Shown piece after piece: positions 1,017-23,116 of a DNA stretch of 31,430 nucleotides. Positions within the stretch are counted from its first letter, which is position 1, and each line of letters opens with the position of its first letter. The DNA comes from Elusimicrobiota bacterium (GTDB taxonomy: Bacteria > Elusimicrobiota > Elusimicrobia > UBA1565), in the NCBI GenBank assembly GCA_043827405.1, contig JBDRPD010000101.1, positions 1-31,430 on the forward strand. Direction: 5' to 3'. The translations under genes and the position numbers were made by a program. The notes under the pieces were generated by a model. It was not told where the DNA came from. It saw only the letters and a list, made by a program, of their open reading frames with translations, and did no database searches.

Positions 1017-1029
1017 GGGTGTTTCCTCC

Positions 1030-2280: not shown

Positions 2281-2284
2281 AGCG

Positions 2285-3572: not shown

Positions 3573-3586
3573 TTGATAAATATCAA
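3573..3586. promoter_or_regulatory. Perfect FNR box TTGAT-AAAT-ATCAA
   Basis: Exact match to TTGAT-N4-ATCAA in an AT-rich gap upstream of 3496. It overlaps the stop codon of the HemN-like gene, and an FNR-type regulator is encoded in the cluster. Confidence 0.7.
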
Positions 3587-5085
3587 TCCTTGCGGCAGCG
3601 CTCGAATGTTGTCATCATGGCCGCTATCTGTTTGTCCGCAACCGGCAAAAAGGCGCGGATGTCCCGGTCGCTGTGGCGGCGGTTGAATGCCTGGAAATCC
3701 TTATGGTGCGCCGCCTTGAGCCGGCGGTGCAGCCGGGGGCTGTAGAGGCGTTTTGAAAAGACCAGTCTTTGCGCCCGGTCCGTTCCCGTAAAGGATACCG
3801 CCTCCCCGTTGGTGCGGATCAGGCCTTCTCGCTGGGCGGCATGCAGCGGGCGCGCCAGCGGCGTGTCGAGCACATCGCAACCGAACAGCCGGCGGAATTC
3901 ACCGCGCGGGATCGAGCCTTGGGCGTATAGGTGGCGCACCGCGAAACCGCGCATCTCCTCGGCCGGCGGCGACTCCATGCAGAAAAACGGGAGGGCGCGG
4001 TCCCAACGCCGCCGCGTTTCTTCGATCGGAGGATGACGGTACCAGGCGGCGCCGAAGGCATGCGACAGGGCGCCGGCGCCCAGTCCGAGGATCGAGGCGC
4101 CGTTTCTCCGCGCGACGCGGCACTGGGATGATATCGTTCTGAGATAGCCCGGGGACTCCGCTTGTCCCGACGGCGTGCGGTAGCCGTAGAGGCGCGCCAG
4201 GCGTTCCAGCGCGGGCAGCAGGCGGACTTTGCCTTCGCGGATGCGCGGAGACAGCGTTTGGCCCGCCTGCGCGAACGGCGTCTGCGGGCGCGGGTCGAAG
4301 CCGAAGAGGTAGACGGCGTCGAGACCCCGGCGCATAATGTCGTCGAGGTCGCGCAGAAAAGACCGCAGCGTCTGGCCCTCCAGGCCGAACATCAGCTCGA
4401 CTCCCGAGTAGACGCCCCGCGCGGCGGTGAGGCGGCGGAGCGCAGCGTTCACGGCGGCGCGCGTCTGGCCGCGGCGGTCGCTGCGCCGCAAGACCGCAGG
4501 ATCGAGGCTCTGTACGCCCAAAGTGATGCGGTTGACGCCGCGGCGCAGCAGCAGCTTCAGCTTGGACGCGGTCAGCGTTCCCGGGGAGGCTTCGACGTAG
4601 AGCTCCGCGTCCGGACGCAGCCGGAAGCTGCGGGATATATGGCCCAGAAGGTCGTCGAGCACCCCGTCCGGGGCCAAAGTCGGCGTGCCGCCGCCGAAGT
4701 ATACCGACGAGAACTCCACCTCGTGGAAAAGGCCGCGCAGGGCGTCGATTTCCCGGCGGATGCCGGCGGCGTAGTCCCGCATCTCGGCGCTGCCGCGCGC
4801 GGCTCCCATGCTGCAGAAGCAGAAGCGGCAGCGGCTGACGCAGAAAGGCCAGTGGACGTACAGGCCGATCTCGCGCGGCGCTTTTCCCGCGCGCATGAGC
4901 GCTGTGGTCCGGCGCCAAAAGTCCCTGATCTCCGCCAGGCCGCTGCGCCGGAAGTAGCCGCAGCTGGAGTAGTAGGTGCCGTCAGCCGGGAAGTACGGCT
5001 CGTGCTCGTCGTTGCACTTGGCCGTGAGGTACGTGCGCCAGCGCAGGTCGGCTATGCGGGCTGTCCGTTCCTTTGCAGTCGGCAT
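3583..5085 (-). CDS. HemN-like (coproporphyrinogen III oxidase family / class C) radical SAM enzyme, paralog 1
   Basis: Motifs GLYVHWPFCVSRCRFCFC, YFGGGTPT, EASP, NRITLGVQSLD and LMFGLEGQT. Start set at ATG 5085 rather than 5118. Confidence 0.88.
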   Translation of the reverse strand: MPTAKERTARIADLRWRTYLTAKCNDEHEPYFPADGTYYSSCGYFRRSGLAEIRDFWRRTTALMRAGKAPREIGLYVHWPFCVSRCRFCFCSMGAARGSAEMRDYAAGIRREIDALRGLFHEVEFSSVYFGGGTPTLAPDGVLDDLLGHISRSFRLRPDAELYVEASPGTLTASKLKLLLRRGVNRITLGVQSLDPAVLRRSDRRGQTRAAVNAALRRLTAARGVYSGVELMFGLEGQTLRSFLRDLDDIMRRGLDAVYLFGFDPRPQTPFAQAGQTLSPRIREGKVRLLPALERLARLYGYRTPSGQAESPGYLRTISSQCRVARRNGASILGLGAGALSHAFGAAWYRHPPIEETRRRWDRALPFFCMESPPAEEMRGFAVRHLYAQGSIPRGEFRRLFGCDVLDTPLARPLHAAQREGLIRTNGEAVSFTGTDRAQRLVFSKRLYSPRLHRRLKAAHHKDFQAFNRRHSDRDIRAFLPVADKQIAAMMTTFERCRKD

Positions 5086-6707
5086 ACGTTCTCGGATTCC
5101 ATGGCCCGGCTGAACCATTTGGGCTTCGCCGCGGCGGGACGATAGTACATGCGCATCATCGAGGCGACGCGCTTGTCGGCGACCGCTTCCAGGCTGCGCA
5201 CCTGCGCGTCGGTGAAGCGGCGGTTGAAGTCGCGGTACTTGGCGCGGTTGCCGCGCAACAGCGCCGAGGTCAATTTGGGGCTGAACAGGTGCTTGCAGTA
5301 GACCAGCCGTTCCGTCCGGTCCTTGCTCAGGAAACGAATATAGCCGCTGTCGATGCGCACCTTGCCGGCGGCGGCAAGGTCGGCCAGCGCCCGCTGCAGG
5401 GCCGCAACGGCCAGGGGGTCCTGTCCGAAAACGTTCTTAAAGCCGGGGCGCGATACTCTGCTCTGCGTATGCAGGTGGCGGATAACGAAGCCGCGCATCT
5501 CTTCGTTGAGGCTCGACTCCAGGGAGTAGAAAGGCGGCAGGCCGTTCCAGTCGCGCGGCGCGCCCTGCTGGCGGTTAGACGACGGCTGCACGAAAGCGGG
5601 ATGACCGTACCAGGCCGCGCCGAAGGCATGGGACAACGCGCTCATGCCGATGCCGAGAACCGACGCGCCCCATTTGCGCGCCATGCGGCACTGCCGGGTG
5701 ATCGCGGTGAGGTATTCCGGCTCCTCGGGGTCGAGCGGCGCGGGCCGGTAGCCGCAGCGCTGCGCGAGCCGGTCGAGTTCTTCGCTCATGCGCCACTGCC
5801 GCTCCCGCAGGCCGTCCGCCGGCCGGCGTCCGAGCTCGGAAAAGGCCGTCTGGACGCGCGGATCGAAGGCGTAGACGCGGAGGTTGCGCGGATGGGCCTT
5901 CAGCATGCCGATAAAATCACGGAGAAAAGAGTCATCGGACTGCCCGTCGAGCCCGTACATCAGGTCGGCGGCGCTGATCATGTCGGCATGGCGGGTCAGC
6001 AGGGCGGCGCTTTGCCGCACATTGTCCTGGTTCTGGCCGACGCGATTGGCTTTGTGCAGAATGAGGTTGTCGAGGCTCTGCACGCCCAAAGTGACATGGT
6101 TGACGCCGAGCGAGCGCATGCACTCCAGCTTCTCGGGCGTCAACGTGGCGGGGGAGGCCTCCATGTAGATTTCGGCGTCCCGCTCCAAACGGAAGCTGTC
6201 GCGGATCAGCTGAAACAGCTCCCGCAGCAGGTCCGACGGCATTAACGACGGCGTCCCCCCGCCCAGATAGATGGAGTGGAAATCGACCTCGGCGAAGACA
6301 TCGCGCAGGGCTTCCATTTCGCGCTTGAGCATCAGGTTGTAGCGGCGGAACTCGCCGCGGCTGCTGGTCAGGCACATGGCGCAGAAGCAGAAGGCGCAGC
6401 GGCTGAGACAAAACGGCCAGTGGATGTAGAGGCCGATCTCCCGCGGGGCTTTCCCCTGCCGGATCAGGCGGACCGTTTTTCGCCAGTAGCCGCGCACGTC
6501 CTCCAGGCCGGCGGGATGGAAGTAGCTGCGGTCCAGGTAGGCGCCCCCGTCGGTGGGGTAGTACGCCTCGTGCTCCTCGTGGCAGACCGCGGTCAGGAAG
6601 CTGTACTTGCGCAGCTCCTCCGCGGATATCGCGCGCGCCGCCCCTTTACGACGGGGCGGCGTGCTCGCCGACGCTCCGCTTACGGCTCCGCGCGCCGCCG
6701 TTACCAC
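5052..6707 (-). CDS. HemN-like radical SAM enzyme, paralog 2
   Basis: Motifs GLYIHWPFCLSRCAFCFC, YLGGGTPS, TLGVQSLD and DLMYGLDGQS. GTG start with a GGAGG RBS, overlapping the upstream stop. Confidence 0.88.
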   Translation of the reverse strand: MVTAARGAVSGASASTPPRRKGAARAISAEELRKYSFLTAVCHEEHEAYYPTDGGAYLDRSYFHPAGLEDVRGYWRKTVRLIRQGKAPREIGLYIHWPFCLSRCAFCFCAMCLTSSRGEFRRYNLMLKREMEALRDVFAEVDFHSIYLGGGTPSLMPSDLLRELFQLIRDSFRLERDAEIYMEASPATLTPEKLECMRSLGVNHVTLGVQSLDNLILHKANRVGQNQDNVRQSAALLTRHADMISAADLMYGLDGQSDDSFLRDFIGMLKAHPRNLRVYAFDPRVQTAFSELGRRPADGLRERQWRMSEELDRLAQRCGYRPAPLDPEEPEYLTAITRQCRMARKWGASVLGIGMSALSHAFGAAWYGHPAFVQPSSNRQQGAPRDWNGLPPFYSLESSLNEEMRGFVIRHLHTQSRVSRPGFKNVFGQDPLAVAALQRALADLAAAGKVRIDSGYIRFLSKDRTERLVYCKHLFSPKLTSALLRGNRAKYRDFNRRFTDAQVRSLEAVADKRVASMMRMYYRPAAAKPKWFSRAMESENVCRLQRNGQPA

Positions 6708-8239
6708 CAGGCCTCCGCTTCGACGCCGATATTCGTAAACGGGCTGATTTCGACCCAGCGCCGCGAGCGCTTGCCGGTGCCTTCTTTGCCGCGGCGTCCG
6801 CCTTGGCCGACGATGCGCTCGCGCGGGATGAAGCCCGATCGCAGAAGCTGCTGCGCGACTTTTTCCAGCATGTCCGAGGGACGGCCCTGCCGCCGGCGCA
6901 AAAATTTATCGAAGTCCGCCCATAGCTTCGGGGTCTCCCGGATATAGCAGTAGGCTACGAACAGCCAGCTGGAACGCATCATGTCCTCGGCGCTGAACGA
7001 GTAGGAGCTGGCGACCAGCCCTTCGGCATCGGTCTTGATTTTGAACTCCGCGACGCGGTCGGCCAGCGGCGCGTTGGGCAGCATGACGAGATCGAACAGG
7101 GTAAAGTTTACGTCCGGGACGAACCGCAGCGCCCAGTCGAGCGAGCGCTTGAAGGACTCATAGCTGTCGCCGGGCAGGCCGAGGATGAACTCGAGGTCCA
7201 GCCGAATGTTCTTGAACCGGGCGATCTTGGCGATATTCTCTTCGCAGCGCGCGATATCGAAAGGCCGGTTGATGTTTTTGAGGGCTTCTTCACCGGTCGT
7301 CTGGATGCCGACCGCCACCGTGGCGCACGGGACTTTGCCCAGCTCCGCGATCAGCTCATCGTCGAAGTGCTCGGCTTTGAGCTCCATCAAAAAACGGTTC
7401 TCGTATTGCTGCAGTATCCGGAACACCTCTTGGCAGCGTTTCTTCTTGATGTTGAGAAAGGGGTCGGTGATGTAGATGACGCCGGCGAACTTCTCGCGGC
7501 GCAGCGTCTCCAGCTCGGCCCGCAGCCGCTGCAGGGAGAATTTCCGCATGCTGCGCCGGCCCGCATGGTAGTCGCAGTAGGAGCAGGACAGCGGGCAGCC
7601 GCGTGAGGACTCGACGCAGATCATGCCGCGGTCGCTGTTGCCGTGGACTTTGAGCGCGCCGGTCAGATAGGGCGAGGGGATGTCCTCCAGGTTGTCCGGG
7701 CCGCGCGACGGCGGCGCAACCACCACGCGTCCGTTCTCGCGATAGGCCAGACCCTCTATTCCCGTCAGCTCCCGTTGGGCCGCGAAGGCCAGCAGCAGCC
7801 GGCGAAAAGGCTCTTCCCCCTCGCCGCAGACGCAGATGTCCACCGCGGGGTTGCTGCGGAAAAACTCCTTGAGCAAAACGTCCTTGCGGGGAATCTCGGG
7901 GCCGCCCACCACGATCCGGACCTCGGGCATATCCTTCTTGAGCAGCTCGATGAGCCCGAGGGTGCGCGGGGCGTTCCACAGAAAGATGCTGAACGCCGCG
8001 ACGTCCGGCCGGCTTTCGCGCAGCGCGGCCAGCGCTTCCTGATCGGTCACCGCGTCGTGGAACTTGAGGTTGATCATCTCCGTGCCGCGGCGGATGCCGG
8101 GGTCCTGCTGGGCGTAGGCGCGCACGGTGGCCAGCCCCAGGGGCAGGTCCGCTCCCGTGCGGATATCGACGTAGCGGTCTTTCTCCGGTCCCAGGAGCTC
8201 GGTCCAGAATGTTTCGAGGTAGACGAAGGATACTCTCAC
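6701..8239 (-). CDS. Cobalamin-binding (class B) radical SAM enzyme, probable methyltransferase
   Basis: B12-binding domain (LPLGLATV, PDVAAFSIFLWN, IVVGGPE, GEGEEPF) followed by ESSRGCPLSCSYC and FILGLPGDS. GTGA overlap with the upstream gene. Confidence 0.9.
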   Translation of the reverse strand: MRVSFVYLETFWTELLGPEKDRYVDIRTGADLPLGLATVRAYAQQDPGIRRGTEMINLKFHDAVTDQEALAALRESRPDVAAFSIFLWNAPRTLGLIELLKKDMPEVRIVVGGPEIPRKDVLLKEFFRSNPAVDICVCGEGEEPFRRLLLAFAAQRELTGIEGLAYRENGRVVVAPPSRGPDNLEDIPSPYLTGALKVHGNSDRGMICVESSRGCPLSCSYCDYHAGRRSMRKFSLQRLRAELETLRREKFAGVIYITDPFLNIKKKRCQEVFRILQQYENRFLMELKAEHFDDELIAELGKVPCATVAVGIQTTGEEALKNINRPFDIARCEENIAKIARFKNIRLDLEFILGLPGDSYESFKRSLDWALRFVPDVNFTLFDLVMLPNAPLADRVAEFKIKTDAEGLVASSYSFSAEDMMRSSWLFVAYCYIRETPKLWADFDKFLRRRQGRPSDMLEKVAQQLLRSGFIPRERIVGQGGRRGKEGTGKRSRRWVEISPFTNIGVEAEAWW

Positions 8240-9639
8240 TTATCCTCGGCGGCGGTGAATTCGGGACGCGCCTCGCGGTTAAGGCGCGCGAATTCCTGGC
8301 GCATCTCGGTCTCGTCCTCCTCCTCCTCGTCGCTGTCGCCTTTGACCAGCTGCAGCCGCCGCTTATGGTGCAGGGCGTTGGCCATGCGGCCCGCGAAATT
8401 GAGAAATCCTTCAAAGCCCAGATAGGGCTCATCGACCAGGGCGTGGTGGAAGTAGGACGGGAAGCCGAGCTCCACGATGCAGAACTTCTCTATCGTATGC
8501 CAGCGGAAGATGCGCGAAACGTCGTTGGTCGTGGTGACGACGAGTTCCGTCGGATCGCCCAGGAAGCGGTTGACGTCCGGGTGGTAGATGTCGGGCTCGA
8601 AGAGGATGGTGTCGGCCATGCCGGTCGCCCTTTCGCTGACCGGGCGGTCGCGTGAGGTCAGAAAGCAGTCGCGTACCGTCATCCCCAGGTCCTCACAGGT
8701 TTCCATGAAGCCTTCCATGTGGTAGGGGTCGCCGATAAACGTCGCTTCCTTGTGCAGGAAGATGTAGGGCGCGATCCACTCCAGGCGGCTCAGGATGCGC
8801 CGCCGCTCTTCAGTGATCAGCTTCTTGGCGGCTTTTTCGCGGCCGGTGGCTGCGGCGAGCTGCCGGATCCAGCGCTCGGTGGCCTGCAGGCCGAACGGCA
8901 GGTCGCAGACCACCAGCTGGGCTCCCGTCTTCTTCGCCAGTTCTGCGGCGGCCTCGCGGCCATGGGGAAAGGAGAGTATGGTGCCGGCCGTCTGCACCCC
9001 CCGCGCGAGCTCATCGTACGGTTGGCAGCTGAACCAGGTCGAGACGAGCTTCAGCCCCAGCGCCTCGATCATGCGGCGCAGCTCTTTGAGGTTGCCCCGG
9101 TGGTCCCCTTCGTTGCGGTCCATCATATAGCCGACGATGGCGACGTTCTCCGGCTTGGGATCAATGCCCGGCAGCGGCATATGGCGCACCAAAGTCCGCA
9201 TGGCGATGGCGAAGCCGTCGAGCCAATCACCGACCAGAGAGGTCGGGGGGATCGAGATGGCCTCCTTCTGCATGAAGGTGCCGGCGCCGCGCATTAGGTG
9301 GTCGTAGTCGATCCCCGTCAGCGAGCAGCCGGGCAGGGCGGTCAGGAAGACGGCGCGGGAATTCTCCAGCATTTCGATCGCGTGCACTTTGCGCAGGATC
9401 ACGTCGTTGTGATCCTTGGTGACGCTTTGGGCGCAGATATTGGTGAAGCAGACCCGGTGGTTGCCGTTGATGTCGAGCAGCGTGCTGTTGAGGTCGTGGC
9501 GCCCGTGGATGAAGTGCGATTTGTAGAGCGCGCAGTCCGGGCCGTCGATAAGGATATAGGCGTCCGGTATGCCGTTGATGGCGAGATAGGCTCCCATCAT
9601 TGAGGGATAATTCAGCCGGTGTCCGCGTACCCTGCTCAT
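8236..9639 (-). CDS. Nitrogenase component 1-like oxidoreductase, beta/NifK-like subunit (HGRHD type), copy 2
   Basis: Motifs GAYLAINGIPDAYILIDGPDC, LPGCSLTGIDYD, GNLKELRRMIEALGL, LPFGLQATERW and ELGFPSYFHH...PYLGFEG. ATGA overlap and AAGGAG RBS. Confidence 0.85.
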   Translation of the reverse strand: MSRVRGHRLNYPSMMGAYLAINGIPDAYILIDGPDCALYKSHFIHGRHDLNSTLLDINGNHRVCFTNICAQSVTKDHNDVILRKVHAIEMLENSRAVFLTALPGCSLTGIDYDHLMRGAGTFMQKEAISIPPTSLVGDWLDGFAIAMRTLVRHMPLPGIDPKPENVAIVGYMMDRNEGDHRGNLKELRRMIEALGLKLVSTWFSCQPYDELARGVQTAGTILSFPHGREAAAELAKKTGAQLVVCDLPFGLQATERWIRQLAAATGREKAAKKLITEERRRILSRLEWIAPYIFLHKEATFIGDPYHMEGFMETCEDLGMTVRDCFLTSRDRPVSERATGMADTILFEPDIYHPDVNRFLGDPTELVVTTTNDVSRIFRWHTIEKFCIVELGFPSYFHHALVDEPYLGFEGFLNFAGRMANALHHKRRLQLVKGDSDEEEEDETEMRQEFARLNREARPEFTAAEDK

Positions 9640-12008
9640 GAGGCGGTCTCCTTAAGGCGTTTATAGAACGGCCACCGGCACAGGTTCTCAATGCGTTCAA
9701 TCGAACGCATCGCTCCCGGCACGCCCATCTCAAGCTCCAGGAGCGAGAACTGGGCGATGCCCCGGCGGGTCAGCCGCTTGTCGAAGAAAAATTCGGAATA
9801 GGCGATGTCGTAGCCTTCGGTTTCAAGGATGGCGTCCAGCTCCTCGTGCGTCGTGAACCATTTTACGCCGTGGCGGCCGGCGCCGCCGTCGAGCTGCGGG
9901 GCCTTGCCCGGGTGGTAGATGATATAGTCGACGGCGATCCCCATCTCCTTGATCATCATGGCCAGGGGGACGCCGCAGTGGCCCTTGGGGTCGGCCAAAC
10001 GGGCGACCTTCTCGGGATCGACGATAAAAGCGAGGCGCCGGCCCTTGAGGCGGGCCGCCCGCTGCTTCCACTTCGGCGCGATCTTCTCGACCGCGCTCGA
10101 CCAGGCGCTGTCGGCGGCGCGGGCGCTGCCGCCGGCGGCTTCGGCCACGGCCTTGAGCCAGGAGCGCGTGTTCGCCAGTCCGTACGGGGCGACCGGCATG
10201 ACGGAGTTGAGCTTGAGGTCGGAGAACAGCCGCTTGTAGGTGCCGAGGTAGTGGGTGTCCGGGTTGAATACATGCGTTCCGGCGCGGTTGAAGGAATCCA
10301 TTTCAGCGACGTTGAATCGCGGCAGGATGAAGAGGTTTATGTCGAGGCCGCAGTCGGCGAGCAGGGCGCGGGTTTCGTCGCGGCCTTTGCCGGCCGGATA
10401 ACCGATGATGTTGACGAGCTCCGGCCGCGGCTGGTGCGCCTTGAACTCAGCGGACGCCTTGATGCGGTCGAAGAATATCCTGAGCAGGTCGGTCTCCTGG
10501 CCGCCCGCGGGGTTGGTGTAGATTATCGGAATGTCGAACTTCTTTTCATACTTCTTCAAGATGCTGGCGGCGTCGTCGCCGATGACGGTCGGGATGCAGG
10601 TGCTGGAGACGACGACGGCCACTTTCCCCTTGGCGCTTTTGACCGCCAGATCGAGCGCCTCTTCAAGCTTGCCTTGGCCGCCCGAGACCACGTCGGTGTC
10701 GCGCAGATCGGTGGTCAGGCCCACGCAGCCTTCGCCGGAGTCCTTGACCCGTTCGCGGCGCTGCAGCCACTTGAAGTTGAACCAGGTCATATAGCCGTCG
10801 TCAAAGTGCGGCGTGGCGTAATGGCATTCGATATCTTCGTGCGAAACCCCGATGATCGGGGCCTCGAGGTTCGTTTGCTGGTCGTAGTTGCGGTTGGTTT
10901 CGCGGTCGGCGAAGAAGTTGCGCCACTGTTCCGGATCGCCCCACTGCCGGGCATGCGGCCCCTCGTTCCACAGGTTCTCCTTGGCCGTGGACCAGATGGA
11001 CAGGATGCGCTCGAGCCGGTCGTCGGGCCGGGCGTTCTTCATCCCCGCCGCGGCTCCGTCCGGCAAGCCGCCGCCGCGCGCTTTATTGACCGCCGCGGGA
11101 GTGGATTCATCGGCGATCCTCGGCGCTCGCGGCGCGGGGGGGCGCCGCGCGCCCTGAAAGTCGAGCCGGGACAGTTCGAGGAACTCGTCGTCGCTCAGCG
11201 GCGTCGGACACGGGGCCTCGGCGATGTCCAAATCATAGAGCGTGTCGGCCAGCTTGCGCAGGGCCTTGGAGAAGGGGGCGTCTTGGTCGTGCTTGAGCAC
11301 ACTGACGCGTTGAAATTCCGCTTTGCGCACGGCGGGATCGCGCGGCAGGAAGGCCAGCACCCGGCTGTCGATGAGCTCGCAGAAGCGGCGGACGGTCGAA
11401 TCCTTCTCTCCCTTATCCTTGGTGTTGGCGATGATGCCGCATAGCCCGATGCCGTTGGAGGCGTAGTTCTCGATGGCGCGCGTAATATTGTTGGCGGCGT
11501 AAAGCGCCATGAGCTCTTCCGACGCCACGATGCACACCTTCTCGGCGAAGCCCAGGCGCAGGGGGGCCGCGAAGCCGCCGCATACCACGTCGCCGAGGAC
11601 ATCGAAGAGCATGACGTCATAGCGGCCCTCATCCATGACTCCGCACTGCGCGAGCATCTCGATGGTGCGCGAAATGCCGCGGCCGGCGCAGCCGATGCCG
11701 GGTTCGGGGCCGCCGGATTCGACGCAGTCGACGCCGAAGTCGCCCGGCACGATGAGCTGCTCGCGCCGGGTCTGCATATCCATGAAGCCCGGAAGCTCGA
11801 CCGCCGTCTTGATGGGCTCGCCGCGCGTCAGGGAGATCGTCGAGTCATGTTTGGGATCGCAGCCGACCAGCAGCACCTTCTTGCCCTGCAGGGCGTAGGC
11901 CGCGGCCAGGTTGGAGGTGATGGTGGATTTTCCGATGCCGCCCTTGCCGAAGATGACGATCCTCTGCACGCGTTTTTTCCCGCGGCCGGGTTTCTTTTTC
12001 TTCGTCAT
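9636..12008 (-). CDS. Fusion of a NifH/BchL-like Fe protein and a NifD-like component 1 subunit, copy 2
   Basis: N-terminal half has GKGGIGKST, GCDPKHDST, ESGGPEPGIGCAGRG and DVLGDVVCGGFAAP. A Pro/Ala linker follows. C-terminal half has TDLRDTDVVSGG, STCIPTVIGDD, VNIIG and PYGLANTRSWL. Confidence 0.9.
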   Translation of the reverse strand: MTKKKKPGRGKKRVQRIVIFGKGGIGKSTITSNLAAAYALQGKKVLLVGCDPKHDSTISLTRGEPIKTAVELPGFMDMQTRREQLIVPGDFGVDCVESGGPEPGIGCAGRGISRTIEMLAQCGVMDEGRYDVMLFDVLGDVVCGGFAAPLRLGFAEKVCIVASEELMALYAANNITRAIENYASNGIGLCGIIANTKDKGEKDSTVRRFCELIDSRVLAFLPRDPAVRKAEFQRVSVLKHDQDAPFSKALRKLADTLYDLDIAEAPCPTPLSDDEFLELSRLDFQGARRPPAPRAPRIADESTPAAVNKARGGGLPDGAAAGMKNARPDDRLERILSIWSTAKENLWNEGPHARQWGDPEQWRNFFADRETNRNYDQQTNLEAPIIGVSHEDIECHYATPHFDDGYMTWFNFKWLQRRERVKDSGEGCVGLTTDLRDTDVVSGGQGKLEEALDLAVKSAKGKVAVVVSSTCIPTVIGDDAASILKKYEKKFDIPIIYTNPAGGQETDLLRIFFDRIKASAEFKAHQPRPELVNIIGYPAGKGRDETRALLADCGLDINLFILPRFNVAEMDSFNRAGTHVFNPDTHYLGTYKRLFSDLKLNSVMPVAPYGLANTRSWLKAVAEAAGGSARAADSAWSSAVEKIAPKWKQRAARLKGRRLAFIVDPEKVARLADPKGHCGVPLAMMIKEMGIAVDYIIYHPGKAPQLDGGAGRHGVKWFTTHEELDAILETEGYDIAYSEFFFDKRLTRRGIAQFSLLELEMGVPGAMRSIERIENLCRWPFYKRLKETAS

Positions 12009-12853
12009 TTCTTCCTGCGCCGGGCGCTCTTTTTGAACTGCGTGTACGAGAGCGCGTAAAATTCACGGTCCTCAAGGGGCGTCGGCAGCGGCAGCGCTTT
12101 ATGCTTGAGCCGCAGGGCCGTCGTCGCCAGGCGGGCGAGCGCGCGGGTGACCGGCGCCTTGGGCGCATGTTCGACCACGGTTTCCCGCTTGAACTCGGCT
12201 TCCCGCACCGCCGGGTCGCGCGGGACGTACTGCAGAATCCTGGTGTTGATCAGCTTGGCGAAGCGCTCCAGCGGCCGGCGGTCGACCTCGGCGTCGCGCA
12301 AATTGGCGATGAGGCCGGCCAGGCGGATGCCGTTGGGGCTGTAGTGCCGGACGGCCTTGGCGATATTGTTGGCGGCGTAGATCGACATCAGCTCCTCGGA
12401 GCAGACGATGAAGACTTTTTTGCCGAAGCCGGCGCGCAGCGGGGTCGCGAAGCCGCCGCAGACCACATCTCCCAGGATGTCGTAGACGCAGATGTCGTAG
12501 CCGCCGTTTTCCAGCAGCCGGGTTTCCTTGAAGGTCTCCAGCATCAGCGAGATGCCGCGGCCGGCGCAGCCCACCCCCGGCTCGGGGCCGCCGGCCTCTA
12601 CCAGATCGATTCCGAAGCGGCCGCGCAGGACCAGCTTGCCGCTGTCGGTTATGGATTCGTTGGCGGCGATCTTCTCCATGAACGTCCGCACGTATTCCGT
12701 GCTGCGTGCGGCGATCGCCAAAGTCGAATCGTGCTTGGGGTCGCAGCCGACATGGAGCACCTTTCTGCCCGAGAGACCGTACAGGGCGCTGAGGTTGGCG
12801 CAGATGGTCGATTTGCCGATGCCGCCTTTGCCGAAGAATACCAGGCTTTCCAT
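12005..12853 (-). CDS. Stand-alone NifH-like Fe protein (ATP-dependent reductase)
   Basis: Motifs GKGGIGKST, GCDPKHDST, EAGGPEPGVGCAGRG, DILGDVVCGGFATP and ELMSIYAANNI. Both [4Fe-4S] Cys are present; 282 aa. Confidence 0.92.
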   Translation of the reverse strand: MESLVFFGKGGIGKSTICANLSALYGLSGRKVLHVGCDPKHDSTLAIAARSTEYVRTFMEKIAANESITDSGKLVLRGRFGIDLVEAGGPEPGVGCAGRGISLMLETFKETRLLENGGYDICVYDILGDVVCGGFATPLRAGFGKKVFIVCSEELMSIYAANNIAKAVRHYSPNGIRLAGLIANLRDAEVDRRPLERFAKLINTRILQYVPRDPAVREAEFKRETVVEHAPKAPVTRALARLATTALRLKHKALPLPTPLEDREFYALSYTQFKKSARRRKK

Positions 12854-12854
12854 T

Positions 12855-14156
12855 TCAGCGCGCCTCCTCGAGGGCGCCGGTAGTCCAATGGGAGACGGCC
12901 TTGCGGCCGTTGAGCGCCTGGTTCATGCGGTCGGCGAAGGCGATAAAGCCGTTGCAGCCGAGATAGGGCTCGTCCTTCAGAAAGTGCGTCCAGACGGAGG
13001 GGAAGCCGAACTCCATCCAGGCGCCATCCGGTTTAAGCATGGACAGCGCGTCCGTGTTGCCGATGAATAGGTCGGTGTCGGCGGCCCGGTTCGCCCAGTC
13101 CGCCCGAAGCTCTGAGACATGAGGCTCGTAGTGGACGCCGGCTGCGGCCTGCCCGCCCGCGGGACGCCGGCCGGAGAGATAGGCCGCGGCCAAGCGCATT
13201 CCCAGATCCTCGCAGGCGCCGCGCAGCCCGTCCAGGAGATGCGGGTCGCCCTGGAAGACGATTTTCTTATGCAGGAAAGCGAAAGGGACCGCCCATTCCA
13301 GGCGCGGCGTGATGCGGTCGAGCTCGTTTTCAATGAAGGCTTCGGCCGCGGCTTTGCGGCCTGTCGCGGCCGCGACCTTGCGCAGCCAGCTTTGCGTGCC
13401 GCGGAGCCCGAACGGGAGCTCCGTGTCCACGAGCTTGGCCCGCAGGCGCTTGGCCAGCGTCGCCGCCGCCCGGCGTCCATGCGGCAGGGAAATAATGGTG
13501 CTCGCGCGCCGTACTTCCCGCAGGCGCTCATAAGAGACGCCGGAGGGCCAGATCGCGACCGGATTGAGGTCCAGCGCCGCGCACATGCGCTTGAGCTCGG
13601 CGAGATTCCCGCGCTGATCGCCTTCGCCCCGGTCCATGAAGTGGCCGATGATGGCGACGTCATTCTTGCGCCGGCGTCCGCCGGAGAGGTCCATGCCGGA
13701 GGCCAGTGTCTGCAGGACGGCTTCGTAGCCGTCGAGCCAGTTGCCCGACAGCGAGGTCCCCTTAATGACGAAGCCGGGTTTTTTGCTGCGGGCCGCCCGC
13801 AGCAGCCGGTCGTAGTCGGTGCCGGCGATCGTGCACATCGGCAATGCGGTTACCAGCAGCGCACCGCAGGCGTCGAGCGCGGCGGTCCGGCGGATCACGT
13901 CGCCGATCATCTCGGCGGAATCGGTGGCGATGGTGTTGGCGCTGATCCCGGCGTACTGGAAGCGGTGATAGCCGGTGCAGGAGAGGAGCGTCGAAGTCCA
14001 GTCGTGACGGCCGTGCACCTGCATGGCGCGATAGAACGAACAGCCCGGTCCGTCCAGGACAAGATAGACATCCGGCAGCGCGTTGACCGCCAGTACCACT
14101 CCTACATTGTGCGGGAAAGTCAGCCGGGGGCTGAAGTCCGTCTGTTTTTTAAGCAT
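12855..14156 (-). CDS. Nitrogenase component 1-like oxidoreductase, beta/NifK-like subunit (HGRHD type), copy 1
   Basis: Start set at ATG 14156 (MLKKQTDF, GGAGG RBS). Motifs LDGPGCSFY..HGRHD, LPMCTIAGTDYD, LPFGLRGT and EFGFPS...PYLG. Colinear with 8236-9639. Confidence 0.85.
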   Translation of the reverse strand: MLKKQTDFSPRLTFPHNVGVVLAVNALPDVYLVLDGPGCSFYRAMQVHGRHDWTSTLLSCTGYHRFQYAGISANTIATDSAEMIGDVIRRTAALDACGALLVTALPMCTIAGTDYDRLLRAARSKKPGFVIKGTSLSGNWLDGYEAVLQTLASGMDLSGGRRRKNDVAIIGHFMDRGEGDQRGNLAELKRMCAALDLNPVAIWPSGVSYERLREVRRASTIISLPHGRRAAATLAKRLRAKLVDTELPFGLRGTQSWLRKVAAATGRKAAAEAFIENELDRITPRLEWAVPFAFLHKKIVFQGDPHLLDGLRGACEDLGMRLAAAYLSGRRPAGGQAAAGVHYEPHVSELRADWANRAADTDLFIGNTDALSMLKPDGAWMEFGFPSVWTHFLKDEPYLGCNGFIAFADRMNQALNGRKAVSHWTTGALEEAR

Positions 14157-15873
14157 CGGTCCTCCCGGCGCGGCGCAGATGCTTGCGGTAGCGGGCATAG
14201 AAGGGCAGGCGGCAGATGTCGAGCAGCCGTTCGAGCGAACGGAGCGCTCCGTCCATGCCCGCTTCGAACGTCCGCATGGAGAACTGCGGCTTCCCGGCGC
14301 GGGTGAGCCGGTGATCAAAGAAAATGTCCGAATATGCGGCGCTGAAATCTCCATTCGCCAGCGCTTGTTCGAGCCCCTGCGGTGCGCTGAAGAAGCGCAG
14401 CCGCGGCGGCCGCTGGAAGCCCGGCAGCGCCTTGAGGCGCCGCGCATTCTTCGGCTCGCGCCCCTGCGGCGCGAAGACGAGAAACTCCGCGCCGAAACCC
14501 ATTTCCGCGATCATGCGCAGGACCGGCACACCCGTCTGAAAGCCCGGCGCCAGCAGGAATCCCAGGCTCGCCTCATCAGCGACGAAGGCGAGGCGGTGTC
14601 CGCGCGCGCGCCGCGTCAGCTCGTCCCAGCGCGCTTTGCGCCGGCGCCACTCCCGCCGCGACCAAGCCGCGGCGGCCGGCGCCTTGCCGTAGGGCGCGGT
14701 GACCGCGCGCAGGTAGCGGCGCGTGCCCTCGACGCCGAACGGCGCCGGCGCGTAGATCGTTTCCAGCGGCAGGCGGGTGAGGGTCCGTTGTACGGTCGGG
14801 ATGGCCCGCAGATATTCCGGCAGGACTTGGCAAGCGGCGGCGGGATAGCGGTGCAGCGTCGGCAGATGCACTTCCGGGAAAATGCGCGCATTAACGCGGA
14901 TGCCGGCCGCCGCCAGCAGCGGGGCCAGCTCTTCGCGGAAAAAGCGCGGCGGACAGTCCAGCAGGTTGACGGCCGCGGGGTCGGGCTTGACGCGCCGGAA
15001 GGCGGCCGTGCCGCGCACTTCGCGGAAAATCTCTTCAAACAAGCTGAAGCTCTTCTGCATGCGGAAATTGATCGAGTTCATGACTACGGGGCAGCCGCCC
15101 GCGTCGCGGCACTTCGCGGCCATCGCCTGCTCATCGTCCCCGATGACGGTCGGAGTGCAGGACCAGCTGATCATAATCAGGTCGGGCCGGGTCCGCTCTT
15201 TAAGCTTATGCAGAAACGCGTTCAGCTTGCCGGCGGTGCCGAGGATCACGTCCTTTTCCTGTAGGTCGCTCGTCCACTGCTCATAGACGGTGTCCGGCAG
15301 CGGGGAGTCCTGGGAGTGAGGATGGACCGGGGGGTAGTTCAAAAAGGTCATGCCCCGGAAGGTCACGTCGGGCGGCATGAAGGTGCAGTCGAAGTCGCCG
15401 TGAACGAAGTATAGAACACGCCCGACAAAGCCGGTGGCATGCGCCCAGAAGAACATGCGGCTGAACTCGCGCTCGCAGAAGAAGCGCCGCCATTGACCGG
15501 GGTTGCCGCCGAGGCGGTCGGAGACGCATTGGGCGTCGGGAGCCTCGCCTTCTCCGCCGTCGCCGTTTTTCTTATTTTGCTTGTCCTGCGGCAGGGCCGC
15601 GATGAGCCGCTGCGGATCGCAGCGCTTGAGGCGGCGCGCCATCTGCCGCAGCAGGTCCGTCAGCTCCCGGCCGGCGGTCTTGCCCTCGTAGCAGATGTCG
15701 AAAGCGCCGGCGCGGACGAAGCAGTTCTTCGCCGGCGCCGGCCGGAGGATGACGACGGCGTTCTTGTGGCCGCGGGCCACGGCCAAACGCACCCGGCCGG
15801 CTTCCTGCCGGCTGGCGCTGCGTAGGCGCCAGGCGCCGTCGAGACCGCATAGGTCGGCGAGCGCCCGGCTCAT
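14149..15873 (-). CDS. NifD-like component 1 subunit with an unassigned N-terminal domain of about 110 aa
   Basis: Start set at ATG 15873 (GAGGAG RBS, ATGA overlap). Motifs GNPGQWRRFF, HGDFDC, TSDLQEKDVILG, SCTPTVIGDD and APFGVEGT. Homologous to the C-terminal halves of both fusions. Confidence 0.82.
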   Translation of the reverse strand: MSRALADLCGLDGAWRLRSASRQEAGRVRLAVARGHKNAVVILRPAPAKNCFVRAGAFDICYEGKTAGRELTDLLRQMARRLKRCDPQRLIAALPQDKQNKKNGDGGEGEAPDAQCVSDRLGGNPGQWRRFFCEREFSRMFFWAHATGFVGRVLYFVHGDFDCTFMPPDVTFRGMTFLNYPPVHPHSQDSPLPDTVYEQWTSDLQEKDVILGTAGKLNAFLHKLKERTRPDLIMISWSCTPTVIGDDEQAMAAKCRDAGGCPVVMNSINFRMQKSFSLFEEIFREVRGTAAFRRVKPDPAAVNLLDCPPRFFREELAPLLAAAGIRVNARIFPEVHLPTLHRYPAAACQVLPEYLRAIPTVQRTLTRLPLETIYAPAPFGVEGTRRYLRAVTAPYGKAPAAAAWSRREWRRRKARWDELTRRARGHRLAFVADEASLGFLLAPGFQTGVPVLRMIAEMGFGAEFLVFAPQGREPKNARRLKALPGFQRPPRLRFFSAPQGLEQALANGDFSAAYSDIFFDHRLTRAGKPQFSMRTFEAGMDGALRSLERLLDICRLPFYARYRKHLRRAGRTDA

Positions 15874-18251
15874 TTCTTTCTCCTCGCCGCGGCGCGCGGC
15901 TCGGCGCACCTTTTGTACAGCTCCCAGCGGCAGATGCGCTCAAGGCGCTGCAGCGATCGCCGCGCCCCGCGCAGGCCCATTTCGACGTCCAGCAGGGAAA
16001 ACTGCGGCACGCCGGCCCGGGTCAGCCGCCGGTCGAAGAAGTACTCGGAGTATACCGCGTCCGGCCCGTTCTCCTGCAGCAGGCGGTGCAGCTCTTTGCG
16101 CTCGCGGAACCAGCGAATCCGGTGCCGGGAGCCGCTGTCTATTTTTGCGCGCGGCAGTTTGGGCGCCGTGCCTTCCACATAAGCGAGGTAGTCGATGCCG
16201 AATCCCATTTCCTTGAGCATGCCCACCAGCGGTACGCCCGCCGCGCCTGTCGGCCCCGCCAAGCGGTGGACTTTGTCGGCATCCACGACGAATCCCAGCC
16301 GGCGCTGCGCGATCCGTTCGCGGCCGGCCGTCCAGTCTTTCGCGATCAGGGAAGCCGCCAGCGACCAGGCCTCCGCGGCGGACGCTTCCTTGCCGCCGCA
16401 TTTCTGCGCGACTTCCATAAGCCAGCGGCGGGTGCCGCGCAGGCCGTACGGAGCGGTCGGCGTGATGCCGGGCAGGTCGACGTCGGCGAAGAGCTTGCTG
16501 TAGGTCGTCTGGAAGGCCGGGTCGGGATAGAAGACGTTGAGGCCGGCGCGGCGGAGCTTCACGGCGTCTTCGACGCTGAAGCGCGGCAGCAGGCAGACGT
16601 TGACGTCGATGCCGGCGTTCTCGAGCAGAAACTTCAGCTCGTCGCGCGGCCGGCCGGGCGGGAAACCGATCAGGTTGACGCGCCGCGGCTGCGGCTTGCA
16701 GCCGCGGAACTCCTTGCTCGCTTTGACGCGCTGGAAAAGGACCTCCATGGGGTCTTCGTAATGGTCGGCGGAAGGGTTGTTGTAGATGATCGGGATATTC
16801 GTCTTCTTGCGGTAGCGCGCAACGAGCCCCGGCGTATCGTCGCCGATCACGGTCGGGACGCAGGTGGAGGTCACGATCACGGCCTGCTTGCCCTCCAGGT
16901 TGTCCATCGCCATGTCGAGAGCTTCCTTCAGCTTGCCGCTCCCGCCCGCCATCACGTCGGTGTCCACGATGTCGGTCGAGATGCACAGGTAGTCGTCGCT
17001 GCGCCGCTTCTGCGTCTTCCAGCGCGCCGCCCAGGGGACATTGAAGGGGACCATATGGCCGTCGTCGTAGTACGGCGAGGCGTAGTTGCACTCGAGGTCC
17101 TCGTGCGAGACGCCGACGATGGGCGCATCCAGGTACATCTGCTGCTCCTGGCTGCGCCAGGTCTCGCGATCGGCGAAGAACTGCCGCCACTGCTCGGGAT
17201 CGCCCCAAACCTTGCCGTGCGGGCCCTCGGCGTGCTTCTTGTCCTTGGCTTTGGCCCACACCGACATAATTTTTTCCAGCCGATCATCCTCTTTCGCCGG
17301 CGGGGGAAGCTTTTGCCGTCCGGATGCCGCCAGCGGAGCGGCCGCGGCGCGGTTGACCGCGATGTCGGGCGTGTCGTCGTAGGCCTGGGGCGCGCGTCCG
17401 GGCGCATGCTCGCGGCGCTCGCCCTTGAACTCGCGGCGCGAGAGGTCGAGGAACTCCCGGTCGGACAGCGGAACCGGCATCTTGGCCTGCGCGACGTCCA
17501 GCTCCCAGAGGATGTCCGCGAGTTCGCCGATCTTGCGCGAGAAGGCGGCGCGGGGGTTGTAGTCGACGACGGTTCGCCGCTCGTACTCGGCTTTGCGCAC
17601 CTCAAGGTCGCGCGGCAGGTAGGTCAGGATGTTGCTGTGGATGAGCTGCGTGAAGCGCACCAGCGTCCCCGCGCTCTCCTCTTCGTCGCTGTGATCTTTA
17701 AGGTTCGCGATGATGCCGCACAGGCCGATGCCGTTGGAGGCATAGTTCACGATCGCCCGGCAGATATTGTTGCAGGCGTAAAGCGCCATCATCTCTTCGG
17801 ACGCGACGATGACCACCTTGTCGGCGAAGCCGAGCTTGAGCGGCGCCGCGAAGCCGCCGCAGACCACGTCGCCGAGCACGTCGAAAATCATCACGTCGTA
17901 GGCGTCGTCCGACATCATGCCGCAGCTCTCCATCATCTCGATGGTGCGCGAGATGCCGCGGCCGGCGCAGCCGATGCCGGGCTCGGGTCCGCCGGACTCG
18001 ATGCAGTCGACTCCCAGCCGCCCTCTAACGACCAGCTGTTCGCGTTTGGCGGACAGGTCCAGGAATCCCGACAGCTCGACCGCGGTCTTGATGGGTTTGC
18101 CGTCGGTCAGGTTGATCGTCGTGTCGTGCTTGGGATCGCAGCCGACGAGCAGGACCTTCTTGCCCTGCGCGGAGTAGGCCGCCGCGAGGTTTGAACAAGC
18201 GGTAGATTTTCCGATGCCGCCTTTGCCGAATACGACAAGCTTCATGCTCAT
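15870..18251 (-). CDS. Fusion of a NifH/BchL-like Fe protein and a NifD-like component 1 subunit, copy 1
   Basis: Motifs GKGGIGKST, GCDPKHDTT, ESGGPEPGIGCAGRG and DVLGDVVCGGFAAP, then a linker, then WGDPEQWRQFFADRE, HEDLEC, STDIVDTDVMAGG and STCVPTVIGDD. The start could be 18245. Confidence 0.9.
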   Translation of the reverse strand: MSMKLVVFGKGGIGKSTACSNLAAAYSAQGKKVLLVGCDPKHDTTINLTDGKPIKTAVELSGFLDLSAKREQLVVRGRLGVDCIESGGPEPGIGCAGRGISRTIEMMESCGMMSDDAYDVMIFDVLGDVVCGGFAAPLKLGFADKVVIVASEEMMALYACNNICRAIVNYASNGIGLCGIIANLKDHSDEEESAGTLVRFTQLIHSNILTYLPRDLEVRKAEYERRTVVDYNPRAAFSRKIGELADILWELDVAQAKMPVPLSDREFLDLSRREFKGERREHAPGRAPQAYDDTPDIAVNRAAAAPLAASGRQKLPPPAKEDDRLEKIMSVWAKAKDKKHAEGPHGKVWGDPEQWRQFFADRETWRSQEQQMYLDAPIVGVSHEDLECNYASPYYDDGHMVPFNVPWAARWKTQKRRSDDYLCISTDIVDTDVMAGGSGKLKEALDMAMDNLEGKQAVIVTSTCVPTVIGDDTPGLVARYRKKTNIPIIYNNPSADHYEDPMEVLFQRVKASKEFRGCKPQPRRVNLIGFPPGRPRDELKFLLENAGIDVNVCLLPRFSVEDAVKLRRAGLNVFYPDPAFQTTYSKLFADVDLPGITPTAPYGLRGTRRWLMEVAQKCGGKEASAAEAWSLAASLIAKDWTAGRERIAQRRLGFVVDADKVHRLAGPTGAAGVPLVGMLKEMGFGIDYLAYVEGTAPKLPRAKIDSGSRHRIRWFRERKELHRLLQENGPDAVYSEYFFDRRLTRAGVPQFSLLDVEMGLRGARRSLQRLERICRWELYKRCAEPRAAARRKK

Positions 18252-18429: not shown

Positions 18430-18493
18430 GTGATCTAGAGCAGAAAATTATATGATAGATGTCAGAGTTTCGCGGAAAATCTTCTCCTATACT
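18430..18493 (+). promoter_or_regulatory. Putative rightward promoter: degenerate Crp/Fnr boxes at 18430-18443 and 18452-18465, plus -10 TATACT at 18488-18493
   Basis: GTGAT-ctag-AGCAG (within the CRP-like aTGTGATCTAGAgcaga) and ATGAT-agat-GTCAG are 22 bp apart. They centre at -63.5 and -41.5 relative to TATACT. Confidence 0.5.
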
Positions 18494-18502
18494 ATCAGAG
18501 TT

Positions 18503-19885
18503 ATGCCGGTAAAGGCAGCTAACAGCCGTAAGGCCCCCGCCGATCTGAATTTGGATCCAAAGCTGCAGGAAAGCGACGAGACGTTCTGGCAGCAGCAGGA
18601 GGGCCGCATGACCCGGCAGATCGGGCAGCCCTGCTGCACGCTCTCCGGCATGACGCATCTGCTCATCGAGATGCCCGGCAATTTCGCCGTCGTGCTGCAC
18701 TCCGAGCGCGACTGCGCGAACTGTTTTCTGAATACCCACGGGGTGTCCGGACGAAACTTCTACTCGGTCGGCATCACGCAGCCGCAGTTTTCGTCGGGGC
18801 GGATGGGCGAACCGCTGCGCCGCTGCCTCGAGCTGGTGATCCGCCACCGCAAGCCCGACGCGGTTTTCGTTTTGGGCAGCTGCCTCGTTGAGATGGTTTA
18901 CGATACGTTCGATATGGTCTGCGCGGAAACGGCGAAAACGACCGGGACGCCGGTCATCGCGCTGCGTACGAGCGGGCTCCGGCACGGTTCCCAGGCGGCG
19001 ATGGTGGATTGGCTCTACAGCACGCTCGCAGGGCTGGCCGCCAGCAGGACGAGCGCGGTTCCCGAAGGGAAAAAGGGCTTGTCCAAGCGCTTGAACCTGA
19101 TCGGGATGCCCCATCTCAACAGCGAGCCGGTCCGCCGCGAGCTGACGGGTTTTCTGCACGCAGCCGGGCTCGCGATTAACGGCGTCTATCCTTACGAGGC
19201 GGGCTTTGAGGATTGGCTGAAGGTGGGGCGCGCCTCGGCGAATGTCGTCGTCGACAGCTCGCTGTATCCCAAGCTGCTGGCGGCGCTGGGCGCATTGAAG
19301 ATGACGTCGGTTGAGGTGCCGCTGCCGGTGGGAATCGAATCGACCTCGCGCTTTTTTGCCGTGATCGGCAAGCAGTTCGGAGTCGCCAAAAGTCTGAGCG
19401 GCGCCTGCGCGGCGGCGGTGGAGACGGCACAGCGGCGCCTGGCGGCGTTTCGCAAGCGCTTTGGCGGGCTGAAGGTCGCCGTGGGCCTGCGCATGGTCAA
19501 CAACTACCGGGTGGATCAGCTCGCATACGACGGGCTGGGCGATATCGCCACCTTCGTCGAGGCGGGCTTCGAGGTCCGGCTGTTTATTCAGGGGCCGGGG
19601 GATCGGAAATCACGCCGGCATTTCGCCGACCGTCTCAAGCAGCTCGGCTGCGCGCTGCCGTTCGAGATATTCCCCGATCCCTACGATCTGCCGCCGCTGC
19701 TGCAGGCCGACCGGCCGGACGTGGCGTACCTGGCGGATCATGCCCGCTGGGAGACGACTAAAATCGGCATCCCGCTTATTCAGAGCCGTTCGCTCGAGCC
19801 GCTCTACAGCGGGGCGGTGCGCAATTTCGACTATTTCGACAAGGTTTTGACGCAGATCGGACGGAGCCGGAGGGGGAGGAGGTAG
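18503..19885 (+). CDS. Nitrogenase component 1-like alpha subunit (NifD/NifE/BchN/CfbD-like) with three cluster Cys
   Basis: Motifs QPCCTLSG, LHSERDCAN, LGSCLVEMVYD, LNLIG and LPVGIESTSRF. Start set at ATG 18503 because the ORF-track start at 18452 lies inside the predicted promoter. Confidence 0.82.
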   Translation: MPVKAANSRKAPADLNLDPKLQESDETFWQQQEGRMTRQIGQPCCTLSGMTHLLIEMPGNFAVVLHSERDCANCFLNTHGVSGRNFYSVGITQPQFSSGRMGEPLRRCLELVIRHRKPDAVFVLGSCLVEMVYDTFDMVCAETAKTTGTPVIALRTSGLRHGSQAAMVDWLYSTLAGLAASRTSAVPEGKKGLSKRLNLIGMPHLNSEPVRRELTGFLHAAGLAINGVYPYEAGFEDWLKVGRASANVVVDSSLYPKLLAALGALKMTSVEVPLPVGIESTSRFFAVIGKQFGVAKSLSGACAAAVETAQRRLAAFRKRFGGLKVAVGLRMVNNYRVDQLAYDGLGDIATFVEAGFEVRLFIQGPGDRKSRRHFADRLKQLGCALPFEIFPDPYDLPPLLQADRPDVAYLADHARWETTKIGIPLIQSRSLEPLYSGAVRNFDYFDKVLTQIGRSRRGRR

Positions 19886-19889
19886 AAAG

Positions 19890-22345: not shown

Positions 22346-23116
22346 ATGAATCCGGGATATCATCGATCGACCATGAAACGGAAGGGCTTGGGACTCGCCG
22401 ATCCGCGGGTCTACTGCAAGGGCTGTCCGGTGCTGCAGACCGGATTTTTCGGCGCCCTCAACAGCGAGTCCAAAGCGGCCCTGACCTGCATGATGGAGTA
22501 CGGGCATTATATCCCGCGCCAGATCCTCTACCAGGAGGGAAATCCGGCGACCCGAATTTACGCGGTCAAGACCGGCTATGTGAAGACGTACCGGACGCAT
22601 CCGCTGGGCAAGCACCAGGTGATTCAGATCGCGAAGGGCGGAGATGTTCTGAACCTTGAGAGCGTGCACGGCCGGCAGTGCACCGTTACGGCGGAGGTCC
22701 TGACCAATTCCGAGATATGCTTTCTCGAGGTGCGTCAGCTGATGGAGCGCGCCAAGCGCAGCGGCGCGCTCGCGATGGAGATCATTCAAATCCTGGCGGC
22801 GGCGATCGTGGATTCGCAGCAGCGCATTCTTGATTTCGGCACGCTGGACGCCAAGGCGCGCTTCGCCGGCTTTCTGCTGGATATGCTGCCGGAAGAGGCC
22901 GTCGCCGCGGCGGCGAGCGGCGGCCCGCGGCGCGGCGGGAAGGAGGCGGGTTTTCGCCTGCCTTTGACGCGCCATGAGATCGCGGATTTGATCGGCGTGC
23001 GCCTGGAGACGATTTCCCGGCTGTTCCAGCTGTTCAAGGAAAAGAAGATTATCGCGGCGGATTGCCGGCAGGTGCGGGTGCTGAATGCCGGCAAGCTGGC
23101 CGAATTGGCGAAGTAG
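22346..23116 (+). CDS. Crp/Fnr family transcriptional regulator, FNR-like
   Basis: N-terminal CKGC, a cNMP-like domain (LYQEGNPATRIYAVKTGYVK), AEVLTNSEICF, and HTH LTRHEIADLIGVRLETISR. The start could be 22373. Confidence 0.9.
   Translation: MNPGYHRSTMKRKGLGLADPRVYCKGCPVLQTGFFGALNSESKAALTCMMEYGHYIPRQILYQEGNPATRIYAVKTGYVKTYRTHPLGKHQVIQIAKGGDVLNLESVHGRQCTVTAEVLTNSEICFLEVRQLMERAKRSGALAMEIIQILAAAIVDSQQRILDFGTLDAKARFAGFLLDMLPEEAVAAAASGGPRRGGKEAGFRLPLTRHEIADLIGVRLETISRLFQLFKEKKIIAADCRQVRVLNAGKLAELAK

Follow-up and report, generated by a model that had tools for sequence, protein, structure and literature searches.

Group VI nitrogenase-like genes of an Elusimicrobiota bacterium: a probable three-cysteine core with a variable fourth ligand site, and a candidate peptide substrate

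The D- and K-type subunits encoded between coordinates 8236 and 18251 of contig JBDRPD010000101.1, the 31,430-nucleotide stretch of an Elusimicrobiota bacterium that we analysed as a whole contig and refer to here as the window, are Group VI nitrogenase-like proteins, members of a known but uncharacterised family. Comparison of their homologues indicates that the family likely has a core of three cysteines plus a variable fourth site, holding one simple iron-sulfur cluster and not one of a new kind, and a peptide is the leading candidate for the substrate. An initial annotation of the window had proposed a new ligation of a [4Fe-4S] cluster at the D/K interface by two cysteines from each subunit (2+2). 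An interfacial [4Fe-4S] cluster without FeMo-cofactor is the best reading, and a 2026 review had already anticipated as much for Group VI in the part that treats the group (PMC13474568, section 7), but the claim of new ligation chemistry does not stand. CfbD, of F430 synthesis, is described in the same review (section 6.2) as binding a [4Fe-4S] cluster at its subunit interface in an all-cysteine 2+2 arrangement through Cys39 and Cys94, the equivalents of NifD residues 88 and 154; neither the reduced cysteine set nor 2+2 ligation is new.

The host genome is 4.33 Mb and 98% complete. Reading leftward from 18251 on the minus strand, the window encodes HD3, an NflH-NflD fusion of 793 amino acids (15870..18251); D2, an NflD of 574 amino acids (14149..15873); K2, an NflK of 433 amino acids (12855..14156); a stand-alone NflH Fe protein of 282 amino acids (12005..12853); HD1, a second NflH-NflD fusion, of 790 amino acids (9636..12008); and K1, an NflK of 467 amino acids with a BchB-like fold (8236..9639), followed by six radical S-adenosylmethionine (SAM) genes. 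The run holds three D domains against two K genes, and no K gene lies directly downstream of HD3.

Group VI was defined among nitrogen-fixation-like systems by Meheust et al. (10.1101/765248), who noted its missing P-cluster cysteines and whose paper names the Elusimicrobia genome GWA2_69_24. K1 has its nearest homologues in Elusimicrobia and Myxococcota, among them a GWA2_69_24 protein at 57% identity; the three H domains of the window are 64–69% identical to their closest counterparts in that genome (68% for the stand-alone NflH), and in a small NflH tree with three outside references they form with GWA2_69_24 a clade that is sister to BchL. The Walker A motif and both cluster cysteines are kept in the window NflH, the stand-alone protein included. 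As described in the parts of these two sources that concern it (10.1101/765248, PMC13474568), Group VI (Elusimicrobia, Myxococcales, Gracilibacteria) shares with the window its clade, multiple gene copies, B12-binding and HemN-type radical SAM neighbours, the lack of NifB and of alpha-Cys275 and His442, and a reduced cysteine set; a radical SAM suite does adjoin the window D/K genes, NifB was not found in the host genome, and the NifD Cys275 column is occupied in D by Pro576 (HD3 numbering). The review allows Group VI pairs no more than four of the six P-cluster cysteines, regards a [4Fe-4S] cluster as likely, and counts the group as completely without characterised members. By the canonical positions HD1/K1 has three of the six and D2/K2 has four if Cys133 of D2 is counted, whereas the divergently read pair X/Y (18452..22333) has five and is an exception to that limit.

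Other assignments were considered and rejected. Identity with CfbD (Group IV-B) is at odds with the distinct, adjacent K genes and with H-domain scores of 253–274 bits against a CfbC cutoff of 402, and the CfbD-type cysteines at 88 and 154 on both partners fit D but not K, which has a proline at the second site. Membership of Group V, which comprises dark-operative protochlorophyllide oxidoreductase (DPOR) and chlorophyllide oxidoreductase (COR), does not agree with BchN, BchB and BchL family scores that all fall far below their cutoffs, nor with Cys36 of K in place of Asp36. A true nitrogenase (Groups I–III) would require 3+3 P-cluster cysteines and Cys275/His442, which these proteins do not have, and NifB was not found in the genome. 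Finally, the histidine of K in the His442 column raised the possibility that the D and K labels were swapped, but the K model best fits beta chains and the D2 model alpha chains.

To define the ligand set we collected 121 K and 81 D sequences, and took D–K pairs from 69 genome loci, from the window and from a second contig of the host genome, C74, which carries a further D/K pair. Counting only pairs with at least 300 bits for K and at least 200 bits for D gave 86 adjacent pairs, and 79 after seven truncated or duplicate ones were dropped; because the loci had been found with patterns that included the HD motif, conservation of that motif was taken from the protein set. Among the proteins, K Cys36 is conserved in 120/120, D Cys388 in 78/78, D Cys464 in 81/81 and K Cys105 in 95/121 (D numbered as in HD3, K as in K1). 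Cysteines at alpha-88, alpha-154 and beta-95 are present in all 79 pairs and are the only three that are universal. The strict 2+2 set, with Cys105 as the fourth, occurs in 39 pairs, and so is not a signature of the family; the second K cysteine is out of register, and entire clades lack it. A further 23 pairs, D2/K2 among them, add a cysteine at or near alpha-62 (one, L016, was corrected by eye), and 21 of these 23 also have K Cys69. Eight pairs, all in a single Myxococcota-rich clade, have an alanine at K position 105 together with a new cysteine at alpha-84, and nine pairs, including that of C74, have the three core cysteines only. The reviewed limit of four canonical cysteines for Group VI (PMC13474568, in its treatment of the group) is thus refined here to a three-cysteine core with alternative fourth sites, some of them off-canonical. 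The census shows experimenters which cluster cysteines to expect, three fixed and one variable, and the paralogues of this one host (HD1/K1, 2+2-like; D2/K2, 3+1(+1); the C74 pair, 2+1; X/Y, 3+2) are a ready-made comparison set.

Alignments of the D and K subunits used references from annotated plasmids (NifD, NifK, NifE, NifN, a Group IV pair and BchN/BchB). Cys388 of HD3 corresponds to NifD Cys88 and Cys464 to NifD Cys154; the equivalents in HD1 are Cys395 and Cys471. The view that all three D domains retain only two of the three NifD P-cluster cysteines is correct for HD1 and HD3, which have an alanine (Ala367 and Ala360 respectively) in the alpha-62-like column, but D2, with candidate ligands Cys133, Cys163 and Cys239, probably has the third at the canonical position. 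Its Cys133 (codon 15475..15477, minus strand) lies within the Trp-rich motif, as the residue after FF in WRRFFC, at or near the position of NifD Cys62: in global mode it falls in the column of the first P-cluster cysteine of all three references (NifD, NifE and Group IV NflD), and in local mode in that of two of the three (NifE and NflD). An ungapped scan of the Trp-rich segment gave no good register in any reference. In the AlphaFold model of D2, Cys133 caps the first helix of domain I (134–147), before a strand ending in His158, an arrangement that we take to be that of Cys62 in NifD.

In the K subunits Cys36 (Cys39 in K2) corresponds to NifK Cys95, and the first cysteine is lacking, as had been claimed, with Pro12 in the beta-70 column. 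The second cysteine does not occupy the canonical site: beta-153 is Pro103 in 120 of 121 homologues, and Cys105 (Cys108 in K2) lies two residues later. In the K1 model Pro103 begins a helix, as Cys239 does in D2, and the best fold match of the K model is BchB; hhalign of the K family against NifD covered 32 columns only and misaligned the BchB N-terminus. Cys69 is found only in K proteins that have Cys105 (65/65), which suggests from co-occurrence that the two may work as a pair (in K1, codons 9433–9435 and 9325–9327). In divergent K proteins Cys105 is gone while HD, DRxE and His399 are retained.

These sets recall several characterised enzymes without matching any of them. NifEN has a 3+1 asymmetric cysteine set, with which the NifE and NifN sequences compared here are consistent, but the D subunits have no equivalent of NifE Cys250 or NifD Cys275, and neither NifB nor NifX is in the locus. 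The 3+1 set of D2/K2 is like that of COR (BchYZ); most D subunits, however, differ from those of DPOR and COR in lacking the first cysteine, and the window has no photosynthesis genes. BchB of DPOR shares with K the Pro12 and the spacing from residue 12 to 36, and conserved K residues fall on or close to the sites of Arg48, Asp290 and His394, whereas the Asp36 ligand is a cysteine and Cys95 a proline in K. CfbD, compared here by description only, is a symmetric homodimer; here the two subunits differ from each other, and the 153/154 site of K is occupied by a proline. Isethionate reductase IsrDK also has an asymmetric four-cysteine set, 1+3, but retains a different four (PMC13474568, section 9.4).

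Five motifs that had been reported as common to the D domains (HD1, D2 and HD3) and to the K proteins (K1 and K2) are all present exactly as written, but their exact forms are mostly local: G[DN]PxQWRxFFxxRE occurs in 2/78 homologues, H[EG]Dx[ED]C in 15/78 and LPxCxxxGxDYD in 6/119. What the family as a whole conserves is a set of shorter cores: FFxxxE, H-x-[DE]-x-[ED]-C, G[RKN]HD (115/119) and DRxE (118/119). The proposal that HGRHD and HED supply ligands to a substrate metal or donate protons divides. HED is not kept as such, since its E varies; His383 of D is at the ordinary nitrogenase His83 position, and invariance is limited to the acids at positions 385 and 387. The histidine of HGRHD, in contrast, plausibly lines the substrate pocket, because it lies 12 residues past the cluster ligand Cys36, the same spacing as Arg48 of BchB; in the DGPDC...HGRHD motif of K1 (9493..9546, minus strand) Cys36 is at the BchB Asp36 position. 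Near-invariant potential ligands in K are His48, Asp49, His61, Asp174, Glu177 and His399; K1 also has the conserved DRxE and Asp304. The absence of FeMo-cofactor ligands is borne out: D has a proline at the Cys275 position, and although His399 of K is invariant (117/117) and lies in the column of NifD His442 and NifK His473, it is on the beta-type subunit and is therefore not a FeMo-cofactor ligand by homology.

A substrate candidate comes from the genomic company of the K genes. On C74 (L001:2611-5338, L002:733-7645) the three-cysteine D/K pair shares a strand with HxsD, an HxsD-like gene, HxsB, HxsA4, about ten radical SAM genes, a tetratricopeptide repeat (TPR) protein and a membrane protein; HxsB scores 512 bits (cutoff 370), the HxsA4 repeat peptide 59.5 bits (cutoff 55) and HxsD is above its NCBIfam cutoff. 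We dropped an assignment of the membrane protein as a prepilin peptidase, as it has no Pfam or NCBIfam match. Among 251 genomes of the host's own phylum K is found in 14 and HxsB in 34; HxsB is present in 13 of the 14 K-bearing genomes as compared with 21 of the 237 others, and in 10 of the 14 the two genes are no more than 20 kb apart on one contig. For the phylum to which a Myxococcales metagenome-assembled genome (MAG) belongs, a set of 251 genomes has HxsB in 37/40 of those that bear K and in 55/211 of the others, with the genes mostly unlinked. All 26 hand-picked K genomes have HxsB. The repeat peptide lies near K in eight of nine genomes fetched, and within 10 kb of K in 4/69 loci, many of which are short; long contigs show one-strand runs of HxsD-HxsB-peptide...D-K-H. 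A modified His-Xaa-Ser repeat peptide is thus a plausible substrate for the Group VI D/K proteins, because their K genes co-occur with the maturase HxsB, and it is a concrete candidate to set against the tetrapyrrole idea discussed below. The HxsABCD system as described (PMC13128918, in part) has four genes and no reductase. Our literature search found no paper linking nitrogenase-like reductases with Hxs or with precursors of ribosomally synthesized and post-translationally modified peptides; the Hxs link is absent from the passages on Group VI in 10.1101/765248 and PMC13474568, nitrogenase is not mentioned in the available portions of PMC13128918 and PMC9062424, and in those of PMC13753814 and PMC9447857 Meheust et al. 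appear, for the terms searched, only among the references.

We consider it probable, if only modestly so, that Group VI D/K pairs work as a reductase of the DPOR type whose single interfacial [4Fe-4S] cluster is held by the three universal cysteines and a variable fourth ligand, and that what they reduce is organic, a modified His-Xaa-Ser repeat peptide being the most plausible candidate. NflH, fused or free, would pass electrons to the interfacial cluster in an ATP-driven manner. In D2/K2 the fourth ligand would be Cys133, for a 3+1 set like those of NifEN and COR; for HD1/K1 the candidates are the off-register Cys105 of K and an invariant acid beside the first cysteine, and in the 2+1 clades the fourth site would be non-cysteine or open. 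The substrate would sit in the pocket equivalent to that of FeMo-cofactor, lined by His48, Asp304 and the His399 loop of K, which may deliver protons as is thought for Arg48, Asp290 and His394 of BchB. A bolder version, offered tentatively, is that Group VI comprises the first nitrogenase-fold reductases to tailor a ribosomal peptide, that the fourth site on the three-cysteine cluster (a cysteine at alpha-62, alpha-84 or beta-155, or an acid or open iron) is swapped between paralogues to tune potential or bind substrate, and that the four D/K pairs of this host reduce radical-SAM-modified His-Xaa-Ser repeats successively.

Several observations weigh against this favoured explanation. There is no Hxs gene or repeat peptide in the window, which is tied to the Hxs system only through HemN-like paralogues and family membership. 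HxsB is common without K (the 21 and 55 genomes above), K and HxsB are more than 1 Mb apart in the long-contig Myxococcota genomes G288, G306 and G318, and the co-occurrence counts include non-independent kin, such that Fisher tests overstate the association. The host genome has hemB and hemC. The mapping of Cys133 is mixed: the local alignment with NifD leaves it unpaired, against the X family it lands 11 residues ahead of Cys62, and in the models the helix behind it is one turn longer than its K1 counterpart. The equivalence of K His48 with BchB Arg48 is argued from spacing and from fold ranges that are nearly colinear, and that register was recovered by neither hhalign nor the ungapped scan. 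K His399 is about three residues off BchB His378, and the Asp and His in question are found in NifK too.

A fairly unlikely competitor is the ligation of the initial annotation recast as a heteromeric version of CfbD, in which K Cys105 is the true fourth ligand and most pairs, HD1/K1 included, work with a 2+2 set. The frequency of Cys105 among the K homologues and the 39 exact 2+2 pairs speak for it, as does the alpha-84 cysteine, which is present in D in 8/12 pairs with an alanine at 105 and in 0/62 keeping Cys105, and looks compensatory; that compensation is confined to one clade, however, and amounts to about one event. Cys105 is two residues off a canonical site that is itself proline, 23 pairs hold both Cys105 and an alpha-62-like cysteine while nine hold neither, and even if the 2+2 geometry were true here it is the one already reported for CfbD. 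The presence of all six of D 62/88/154 and K 36/69/105 in 21/79 pairs, with Cys69 never found apart from Cys105, could instead mean that the H-D fusion class holds a larger, P-like cluster or a second one. We regard this as very improbable. Of the three K cysteines only one is at a canonical site, and the beta-70 column holds a proline; HD1/K1 and HD3, together with L014 and L015, which are closest to them, no longer have the first D cysteine; a search of the host genome found no NifB; and Cys69 and Cys105 could be a plain surface pair.

The published proposal for Group VI is tetrapyrrole reduction to make a new cofactor, and it draws strength from the position of NflH beside BchL, from the closeness of the K fold to BchB, from the HemN-like and B12 radical SAM neighbours and from hemB and hemC in the host. 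We nevertheless think it unlikely: of 13 K-bearing relatives, seven have HemC, but it was not found in the other six, which are 95–100% complete and all have HxsB. The HemN-like genes have paralogues in the Hxs operon, and none of these genes reaches a tetrapyrrole-enzyme cutoff. That the conserved histidines and acids bind a second, mononuclear metal is a still weaker prospect; K has many near-invariant potential ligands and an HxS-repeat substrate is itself His-rich, but two of the residues, D His383 and K His399, fall at ordinary nitrogenase positions. There is, lastly, only a slight chance that HD3, having no K gene of its own, works as a homodimer of the CfbD type around a symmetric 2+2 cluster. 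The excess of D domains over K genes in the run would fit, as would the roughly one third of Group VI genomes said in the relevant part of the review to carry H and D only (PMC13474568), but K partners D in nearly all related loci, and K1 could serve HD3 as well as HD1, to which HD3 is 55% identical.

The leaders of the HxsA4 peptides (L001:5030-5338, and the peptides of L085-L097) share the motif FL(T/N/S)SEEGK, a run of hydrophobic residues and, ahead of the repeats, an A-Q junction, a layout that, we presume, recalls pilin-type and signal-peptidase sites. D2 has a conserved, well-predicted N-terminal accessory domain (15514-15873, minus strand) of about 115 amino acids, with five strands and two helices, which has no family match but reaches a template modelling (TM) score of 0.65 to Myxococcota radical SAM clusters or protein parts (Atlas); unfused D subunits retain it, L054 and L075 have two tandem copies, and its role may be to bind a partner or the substrate. 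A D homologue, P0193 (MFV8753545.1), is from Nannocystaceae bacterium ST9, on a 6.98-Mb contig without a MAG label, and this could be a cultured host, although a literature search turned up nothing on it.

Of the six radical SAM genes, all on the minus strand, a B12-binding protein (6701..8239) overlaps the K1 stop; two HemN-like proteins (3583..6707) have their best three paralogues (33–43% identity) in the His-Xaa-Ser operon of C74; and three paralogous proteins (1..3496), the last of which runs past the contig end, have best matches, below cutoff, to peptide-maturase families. On the plus strand X, a divergent NflD-like subunit (18452..19885), has all three canonical cysteines (62, 88 and 144), and Y, a divergent NflK-like subunit (20987..22333), has Cys25 in the beta-70 column, Cys50 at beta-95 and a threonine at beta-153; Cys25 is not conserved in the four homologues of Y. 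X and Y are part of an X-TPR-Y unit with a 3+2 cysteine set, for which homologous pairs are present in loci L014, L043 and L059, and a Crp/Fnr-family regulator (22346-23116, plus strand) follows immediately after Y. No sequence overlap joins the left end of the window to C74; the last 55 bases at its 3′ end match the end of contig C73, where the assembly may continue.

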